Source of the DNA: a candidate division FCPU426 bacterium
GTDB taxonomy: Bacteria; Oederibacteriota; Muellerivitia; Muellerivitales; Muellerivitaceae
Direction: 5' to 3'
Length of the DNA stretch: 64,000 bases
NCBI GenBank assembly: GCA_963738405.1
Contig: CAVTWJ010000002.1
Span: forward strand, 128,001 to 192,000
Of the stretch, positions 17,914-18,120 are shown piece after piece. The position numbers and the translations under genes were made by a program. The notes under the pieces are model-generated. The model did no database searches, had not been told where the DNA came from, and saw only the letters and a program-made list of their open reading frames with translations. How positions within the stretch are numbered: position 1 is the stretch's first letter; each line of letters begins with the position of its first letter.

Positions 17914-18120
17914 GAACAAATCAAAAAAGATTTGTTCTGATCCCCTGACTGTTACAGATCCAAAAGATCTGAAACAACCAACTTGCCCCGGCGTGTACGG
18001 TTTCCAAAAACAACATGGAGACCGTGCGAACAGGGAGCTAAAGCGGGAACAGATTTCCGAGAACCCTCGAAATCCCGAACCGCTCAAAAACCGCGGTCCG
18101 GGATTTTTTATTTCCGGACC
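17914..18120 (+). promoter_or_regulatory. Candidate riboswitch/attenuator leader of the met/cys operon
   Basis: Multi-stem domain closed by AGATTTGTTC/GAACAGATTT, followed by terminator AAATCCCGAACCGC/GCGGTCCGGGATTT plus U-tract. Confidence 0.65.

Follow-up and report, generated by a model that had tools for sequence, protein, structure and literature searches.

The window analysed here, a 64,000-nucleotide stretch of DNA from a candidate division FCPU426 bacterium, carries metY, cysK, metX and metW on its forward strand (Table 1). The operon named in the original prediction holds, as each of the four products scores above the cut-off of its protein family; the metX product was also compared with TIGR01392, where it falls below the cut-off (457 against 500). 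The metY leader lies between a divergent ORF on the reverse strand (17155-17790) and the metY start codon. This ORF encodes 211 amino acids; the start of its product is signal-like, the tail is rich in Pro and Thr, and no NCBIfam family matched it. A promoter scan of the metY leader returned no consensus site, and no good -35 element was found near the TAATCT hexamer; at the equivalent position, however, the paralogous copy at C2 and several relatives carry TTGACA-17-TAnnnT. Folding of the metY leader was compared with that of shuffled sequences, and none of 200 shuffles was as stable (z -8.8). The leader holds a single copy of the motif described below.

Table 1. Genes and predicted RNA elements at the metY locus (positions in the window).
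Feature	Position	Strand	Basis
-10-like hexamer TAATCT, inferred promoter element	17847-17852	+	sequence; 5 nt 5' of P1
P1 5' strand, CACGC	17858-17862	+	covariation in a 74-row alignment, with two-sided changes at 4 of 5 pairs
L1 third strand, GAGGC-UUU-AA	17863-17872	+	comparison with SAM-II, SAM-V and SAM-II long-loop RNAs
Insertion, 105 nt, dispensable	17873-17977	+	folds alone; 1-7 nt in most copies
P2 5' strand: CC (P2a), AAC, UU-G-C (pocket), CCC, 1-nt linker G	17978-17990	+	
P1 3' strand, GCGUG; last G common to P3 base	17991-17995	+	
Variable L3 hairpin (P3)	17995-18027	+	length and sequence differ among copies
GAACA, then P2 3' strand: GGG, A bulge (18036), GC, U18039, AAA (18040-18042), GC, GG (P2a)	18028-18046	+	
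Antiterminator: GCGG (18043-18046) with CCGC (18080-18083), plus inner stem	18043-18083	+	-14.3 kcal/mol
Intrinsic terminator: stem 18070-18106 plus U-tract	18070-18113	+	-19.0 kcal/mol
metY, O-acetylhomoserine sulfhydrylase	18147-19439	+	TIGR01326, 672 bits (cut-off 495)
cysK, cysteine synthase A	19444-20379	+	TIGR01139, 473 (cut-off 351)
metX, homoserine O-acetyltransferase family	20376-21524	+	NF001209, 494 (cut-off 331)
metW	21514-22110	+	TIGR02081, 226 (cut-off 189.5)

The leader had originally been described as a transcriptional OFF switch of unrecognised class, spanning 17914-18120. The sequence strings quoted for it were all found in place, the terminator and the antiterminator closed by GCGG/CCGC were both recovered with the energies given in Table 1, both of the hairpins claimed in the leader exist, and the local hairpin 17914-17922/17929-17937 has a pairing probability of 0.99. 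A simple terminator scanner did not list the terminator because its 9-nt loop exceeds the scanner's limit of 8 nt. Infernal searches against Rfam gave no match at the gathering score anywhere in the window, consistent with the claim that no known Rfam class is present; between 16500 and 19000, a search at E<=10 returned only a chance match to NrrF that falls off the leader. There was no Rfam T-box or SAM-I match within the window, and none to the covariance models of SAM-I (RF00162), SAM-I-IV (RF01725) or the T-box at the metY leader. The leader falls outside the Rfam models, but its class is not unrecognisable, as it can be identified as a relative of SAM-II and SAM-V.

As read from its sequence, the conserved aptamer spans 17858-18046 and is an H-type pseudoknot in the SAM-II/SAM-V layout, because P1 crosses P2 (17978-89/18033-46). 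ViennaRNA cannot draw this aptamer because of the pseudoknot, and gives P1 a probability of about 0.01 in the window copy. The core starts 56 nt 5' of 17914, and the span first proposed omits the 5' third of the aptamer, 17858-17872. When the four copies in the source genome (G000) were compared, the core read, in order, P1 5' strand, GAGGCUUUAA, an optional insertion, CCAACUUGCCCC, G and P1 3' strand, followed by a variable hairpin, GAACAGGGNGCUAAAGCGG, and then the antiterminator and terminator. The variable hairpin P3 of the window copy is the GTACGG.../...CCGTGC hairpin of the original prediction. The string GGAGCTAAA, which had been taken as an echo of SAM-I, was mis-assigned and corresponds to the 3' pocket strand of a pseudoknot of the SAM-II/V type.

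In the available text of PMC6061858 and PMC3303485, the pocket of SAM-II and SAM-V comprises a UUU third strand, UUG in P2, a bulged U as the partner of the SAM adenine, and AAA, the last A of which contacts the amino-acid end of SAM; the contacts given are U9, U20, U47 and A48-A50 in the SAM-V crystal paper (PMC6061858) and U10-U12, U20, U21, G22 and U44-A47 in SAM-II (PMC3303485). The pocket bases of the window copy are in register with these (17868-70, 17983-85, 18039 and 18040-42). By analogy, UUU 17868-17870 is predicted to correspond to U10-U11-U12 in SAM-II, U18039 to be the partner of the SAM adenine, and AAA 18040-18042 to form triples and the amino-acid contact; a major-groove triple helix is likewise inferred from base identity. 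C17867 in L1 occupies the position of an A in the SAM-V and SAM-II long-loop consensuses.

Homologous leaders were aligned, as the original prediction had proposed; this brought out the covarying pseudoknot P1 (17858-62/17991-95), and the closing helix first proposed was not conserved. The alignment (A1) comprised the 74 of 234 parseable copies with an insert of at most 7 nt, a short P3 and less than 88% likeness. Across A1, 94.8% of cells were paired, and 63 two-sided changes were counted compared with 22.6 in shuffles that leave the relatedness among copies in place (none of 500 reached 63) and at most 25 when partners were slid. In P1, the changes on both sides include G-C in 57 copies against C-G in 17, and C-G in 55 against U-A in 16, and P2a shows two compensatory C-G to U-A changes. 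P2 is 98% paired and mostly invariant; where its cells are unpaired, the bulge has moved, GCUCC with G(C)GAGC being an example. The sequences show that P2 is kept among copies with a movable one-base bulge, and most P2 pairs are unproven by covariation because they never vary.

Since the search patterns had a fixed core, the pocket count was repeated with the pocket positions (U20-U21 and U44-A47) wildcarded and G22 kept fixed. SAM-II numbering is used here; for positions 8, 9, 13-19 (except A19), 41-43 and 48-51 the numbers are an extension of that scheme and are presumptive. UU, U and AAA were present in all 239 copies, and in all 30 copies at loci fetched by MetY protein or by coordinates, the coordinate-fetched loci having been chosen from model matches and being only partly independent of the pattern. 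The wildcard pattern gave no match on reversed sequence. Among 210 copies in which an exact 4-bp P1 fixed the register, the third strand read UUU in 189, GUU after C9 in 14 (the equivalent of U10 being G in these 14), and something else or mis-placed in seven; position 9 of L1 was C in 190, A in 18 and U in two.

The 105-nt insertion of the window copy, in which most of the originally described elements lie, folds alone at -31.7 kcal/mol into a three-way junction, with CAGG/CCUG as its closing stem and two hairpins as its arms, and an additional third hairpin. At the same site, most copies have an L1-side insert of just 1-7 nt; in others its length is about 36-69 or 100-128 nt, and the long insertions have only a loose junction plan in common. 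Because it folds by itself, is reduced to 1-7 nt in most copies and has little common plan, the insertion is regarded as peripheral. In two copies (L363 and L346), the L3 hairpin is swapped for a branched insert of roughly 75-90 nt, and both insertion sites can therefore accommodate large domains.

A terminator-like hairpin with a U-tract was present in 199 of the 227 copies with enough downstream DNA. CCGC lies in the 5' arm of 177 of these 199 predicted terminators, and GCGG folds onto it in 173 of the 177; overall, CCGC was found 10-60 nt downstream of 204 copies, compared with 47 in shuffles. Because the GG of GCGG also forms P2a, the bound aptamer and the antiterminator should be mutually exclusive, and this model would predict an OFF switch in the presence of ligand. 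These data support the original proposal of a transcriptional OFF switch with a variant aptamer absent from Rfam. Three translational copies end instead in a Shine-Dalgarno sequence 8-9 nt 5' of an ATG. Separately, the 3' arm of the metY terminator, together with its U-tract, is able to pair with the 10 bases that follow (GGUCCGGGA/UUUCCGGACC; 18094-18120); this further hairpin would require read-through in order to form.

Searching the source genome at the DNA level revealed three further copies on the same contig as the window leader, two of them in tandem before a 1-Cys peroxiredoxin gene and the third before genes for an exported protein, a sulfate-binding protein and a sulfate permease-like product, gene labels here being taken from relatives' proteins. 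Two related long inverted repeats, REP-like in form (ACCAAGACACCAAGG... / ...CTTGGTGTCTTGGTGG; G000:C2 ~4330-4220 and 3300-3140, L003), sit between these paralogous copies. A strict pattern matched 23 of 30 same-family genomes and two of 30 others, with four control matches in 61 genomes. Scans of sequence collections added 23 GTDB stretches, with Elusimicrobiota and 'Candidatus Firestonebacteria' records among their titles, and a metagenome scan found at least 145 stretches with the motif. With a relaxed pattern, 299 loci yielded 261 distinct copies with 245 distinct cores; strains that are nearly identical contributed many of the 261. A covariance model, for which 74 copies were used, found four copies in the source genome and identified the motif in 28 of 30 family genomes, in 36 of 99 genomes of the phylum and in four of 121 genomes of a second phylum, that of one Elusimicrobiota-titled record; by this model, a genome may carry up to 12 copies, often in tandem. 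One copy was counted in 97 of 176 leaders, two in 70 and three in nine, and these counts are lower bounds, as some loci are incomplete. Four weak model matches without the core (L356, L357, L343 and L345) were set aside as chance; at a further locus (L348) the copy is degenerate and no gene was called downstream of it.

The first gene downstream of the 261 copies encodes an exported protein in 45, a 1-Cys peroxiredoxin in 43, MetY in 31, a DUF2292 peptide in 18, ExbB in 18, a 115-aa family in 17, a DsrE-like protein in six and a sulfate-binding protein in four, with no ORF called in 49; smaller groups include cysK-like and sulfite-reductase-like genes, and outliers add cysH, cysD-cysN and metH. 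The motif precedes sulfate and sulfonate uptake genes as well as metY, cysK, cysD and cysH. The exported protein is unannotated and lies upstream of sbp in G000 and G003. The 115-aa family comprises proteins of 103-117 amino acids (e.g., L096:1371-1718 and L085:2026-2370) that matched no Pfam or NCBIfam family. In one locus (L360:236-9879; G003:C10), copies head a same-strand run of a DUF3034-like gene, metY and cysK, with a family 2A encapsulin with cysteine desulfurase cargo further on. In another (L359:7356-10946; G025:C24), a tandem pair of copies precedes a nitroreductase-like gene and genes whose sequences resemble those of riboflavin synthesis; this gene set suggests flavin supply for sulfonate use.

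The reading that we favour, with a probability of roughly three in four on comparative sequence grounds, is that the leader joins a SAM-II/SAM-V-type pseudoknot to a terminator/antiterminator pair, likely binds SAM, and would thereby stop transcription before metY-cysK-metX-metW. With SAM bound, L1 would dock in the major groove of P2, the SAM adenine would pair with U18039, the sulfonium would lie between U17869 and U17984, and the amino-acid end would contact A18042. Binding would lock AAAGCGG into the aptamer and allow the terminator to form (OFF); without SAM, GCGG would pair with the emerging CCGC at 18080-83 and the terminator would be broken (ON). SAM would then serve as a proxy for sulfur sufficiency over the whole sulfate-starvation gene set, a role ascribed to SAM riboswitches in the accessible part of PMC9971707.

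A different ligand was considered, with the same fold and OFF logic but with a pocket that responds, in place of or in addition to SAM, to SAH, homocysteine, cysteine or a SAM derivative, separately from SAM-I. The regulon is centred on sulfate and sulfonate uptake, cysH, cysDN, cysK, peroxiredoxin and TonB/ExbB, the motif was found within 1.5 kb of metK at none of 30 metK loci (a metK search of the source genome assembly itself gave no match), and it coexists with ordinary SAM-I, which 20 of the 24 family genomes scanned for it carry, usually upstream of a threonine-synthase-like gene; because these genomes keep SAM-I, a second sensor for SAM is not obviously needed. C rather than A at position 9, C at 19 and a longer, bulged P2 also favour a changed pocket, and SAM aptamer variants with changed ligands are described in the available text of PMC10853860. 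However, all of the bases reported to touch SAM are kept, including both sulfonium-facing uridines, and C19 is found also in SAM-II long-loop RNAs. Moreover, SAM-I replaces the motif before metY in three genomes. In G010 and G019, the only two of 30 family genomes without the motif, a canonical SAM-I precedes metY or metW-metY; in G013, one metY follows the motif and another follows a SAM-I. A SAM-I/IV riboswitch also stands in tandem with one copy. We regard a different ligand as unlikely. Similarly doubtful is a stronger version, in which a SAM-II-derived aptamer has been retuned through C9, C19 and the longer bulged P2 to a sulfur signal other than that of SAM-I, and replaces protein regulators of the sulfate-starvation regulon with up to 12 switches, often in tandem. 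The single SAM-I of the source genome (C1:31098-31226; L149) precedes a threonine-synthase-like PLP enzyme.

It is quite improbable that the core is instead a protein antiterminator site, or a fold pairing GCUUUA of L1 with UAAAGC at 18039-18044, with a sulfur-sensing protein deciding on termination. The two strings are perfectly complementary in 184 of 234 copies, and their helix belongs to the nested minimum-energy fold of the aptamer-only transcript and would explain C9. Nevertheless, no compensatory change was seen in this helix: 39 of the 234 copies break it, 11 differ by wobble only, and A1 contains no two-sided pair. The invariant UU and CC would be left unexplained, and the gene maps that were inspected showed no conserved gene for a regulator.

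A novel multi-stem aptamer closed by 17928-17937/18047-18056, as first proposed, is scarcely credible, since these strands, complementary over 10 bp with two G-U pairs, pair with a probability of about 6e-7 and cost 11 kcal/mol when forced (-81.7 compared with -92.8), the helix and its multiloop fall in the non-conserved insertion, its 5' strand is missing from most copies along with that insertion, and a relative with a near-identical insertion (L056) is without the 3' strand. The enclosed CCCTG/CAGGG pairing fares no better (p 0.008), as CCUG of the insertion pairs instead with CAGG 17873-17876 (p 0.76), and GGG 18033-18035 with CCC 17987-17989 (p 0.98).

Three further candidates were considered, and the first two of them were rejected. 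Leader-peptide attenuation was set aside, as the frame that opens at ATG 17912 is 121 codons long and meets no stop codon within the leader, and its phase changes among copies with the variable hairpin. GGG, the 7-nt bulge and GCG of the leader resemble a T-box-like antiterminator, but the GGG has no downstream partner, pairs with the upstream CCC, and there is no Rfam T-box match. GCGAGGCT resembles a PyrR-type site, but it corresponds to P1/L1, and the downstream genes are not pyrimidine genes.

On this evidence, the uncultured lineage would govern both the uptake and the assimilation of sulfur by a single expanded family of riboswitches. Because Rfam does not detect this family, the entire regulon goes unnoticed in standard annotation. 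The motif also marks genes of unknown function as likely sulfur-starvation genes, namely those for the DUF2292 peptides, the 115-aa family, DUF3034 and the exported protein before sbp. Its transcriptional, translational, minimal and long-insertion forms would make a natural series linking SAM-II and SAM-V, and lend themselves to testing what amount of peripheral RNA is compatible with the pocket. The regulon is unusually large, but the ligand and the logic are most likely known ones. Were the ligand not SAM, the motif would represent a new sulfur-sensing class, the existence of which is expected in the accessible part of PMC9971707; the retuned aptamer described above would amount to a new class of riboswitch, one that reads cysteine, homocysteine or a sulfur metabolite related to them.

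Several known classes resemble the motif in part. SAM-I and the T-box share with it the terminator/antiterminator OFF logic before met genes, but have no common fold with it. PBC-28-3, found before AhpC, is set apart by its description as a translational hairpin in the available text of PMC8632094. The main form of the motif did not score on any Rfam SAM model scanned, and SAM-Chlorobi (RF01724) gave no match at motif copies. The class of SAM-II long loops (RF01726) has, as far as the accessible text of PMC2864571 describes it, a nine-base L1, insertions at the same two sites as the motif, C often at position 19 and, in some members, GCUAAAGC at the 3' side, but differs in having A at position 9 in nearly all rows and in its Bacteroidetes/marine distribution. 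Its model (cut-off 44 bits) gave four weak matches in the source genome, none at a motif copy, and none in 12 further loci.

SAM-II itself (RF00521, SAM_alpha; the metX aptamer 2QWY) has the same register of U10-U12, U20-U21-G22 and U44-A47 in the parts of PMC3303485 and PMC10907184 that are accessible. In contrast to SAM-II, the motif has a GC-rich 5-bp lower P2, an invariant GAAC/AAAC in L3 and a one-base G linker, and its regulon reaches sulfate and sulfonate uptake, peroxiredoxin, DUF2292 and TonB systems, with up to 12 copies in a genome. The SAM_alpha model (cut-off 36 bits) did not match the four copies in the source genome, and its best score was 13.6 bits. That score fell on an outlying minimal copy before methionine synthase (metH), which has A9, G13 and A19 and scores 21.3 bits on SAM_V. 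The accessible portions of earlier reports already contain terminator-coupled SAM-II and tandem forms, such as S. meliloti metZ (PMC9373788), 44 SAM-II doublets and SAM-I/IV-then-SAM-II tandems (PMC9481103), and long-loop SAM-II (PMC2864571). No description of the motif was found in the openly accessible literature searched, nor in the part of the Weinberg 2010 supplements that was available.

Among the motif copies, one translational copy with its Shine-Dalgarno sequence within the 3' strand (L349) lies directly behind a true SAM-I/IV (62.7 bits, cut-off 41.1). At this locus (L349:1294-1556; G004:C4), the SAM-I/IV and its terminator are followed by the motif, before a gene for a 387-aa protein with no NCBIfam match. 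Two other loci (L350 and L351) have a translational copy before a 163-aa homolog of this protein and no SAM-I/IV, the Rfam scan covering L350.

Also among the closest relatives is SAM-V (RF01826; metY/bhmT of 'Ca. Pelagibacter ubique', PDB 6FZ0). According to the available text of PMC6061858, SAM-V has the same H-type pseudoknot with a P1 of 4-5 bp, and shares with the motif a U-rich third strand, an L3 hairpin, an A-rich strand before P2, the bulged U for the SAM adenine, the AAA and a 2-bp P2a; both also precede the same gene, metY, and the spacing of CC-NNN-UU against AA-NNN-GG in the motif follows the Rfam SAM_V consensus line. Unlike SAM-V, the main form of the motif ends in GCGG, which leads to a transcription antiterminator rather than a Shine-Dalgarno sequence, and it has C at positions 9 and 19, a P2 that is one pair longer with a bulge, and insertions of up to 128 nt. 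The SAM_V model gave no match in the source genome, and every copy scanned stayed below its cut-off of 41; the best scores, 23.1 (L349) and 21.3 bits (the copy before metH), belong to outliers (E 0.06 and 0.35), and these weak matches fall exactly on the motif. Because it appears to work alike, scores below the cut-offs of three Rfam families and departs from them at position 9, the motif is best described as a SAM-II/SAM-V-like variant, and SAM-V was itself split from SAM-II on differences of comparable size, to judge from the accessible text of PMC2704228.
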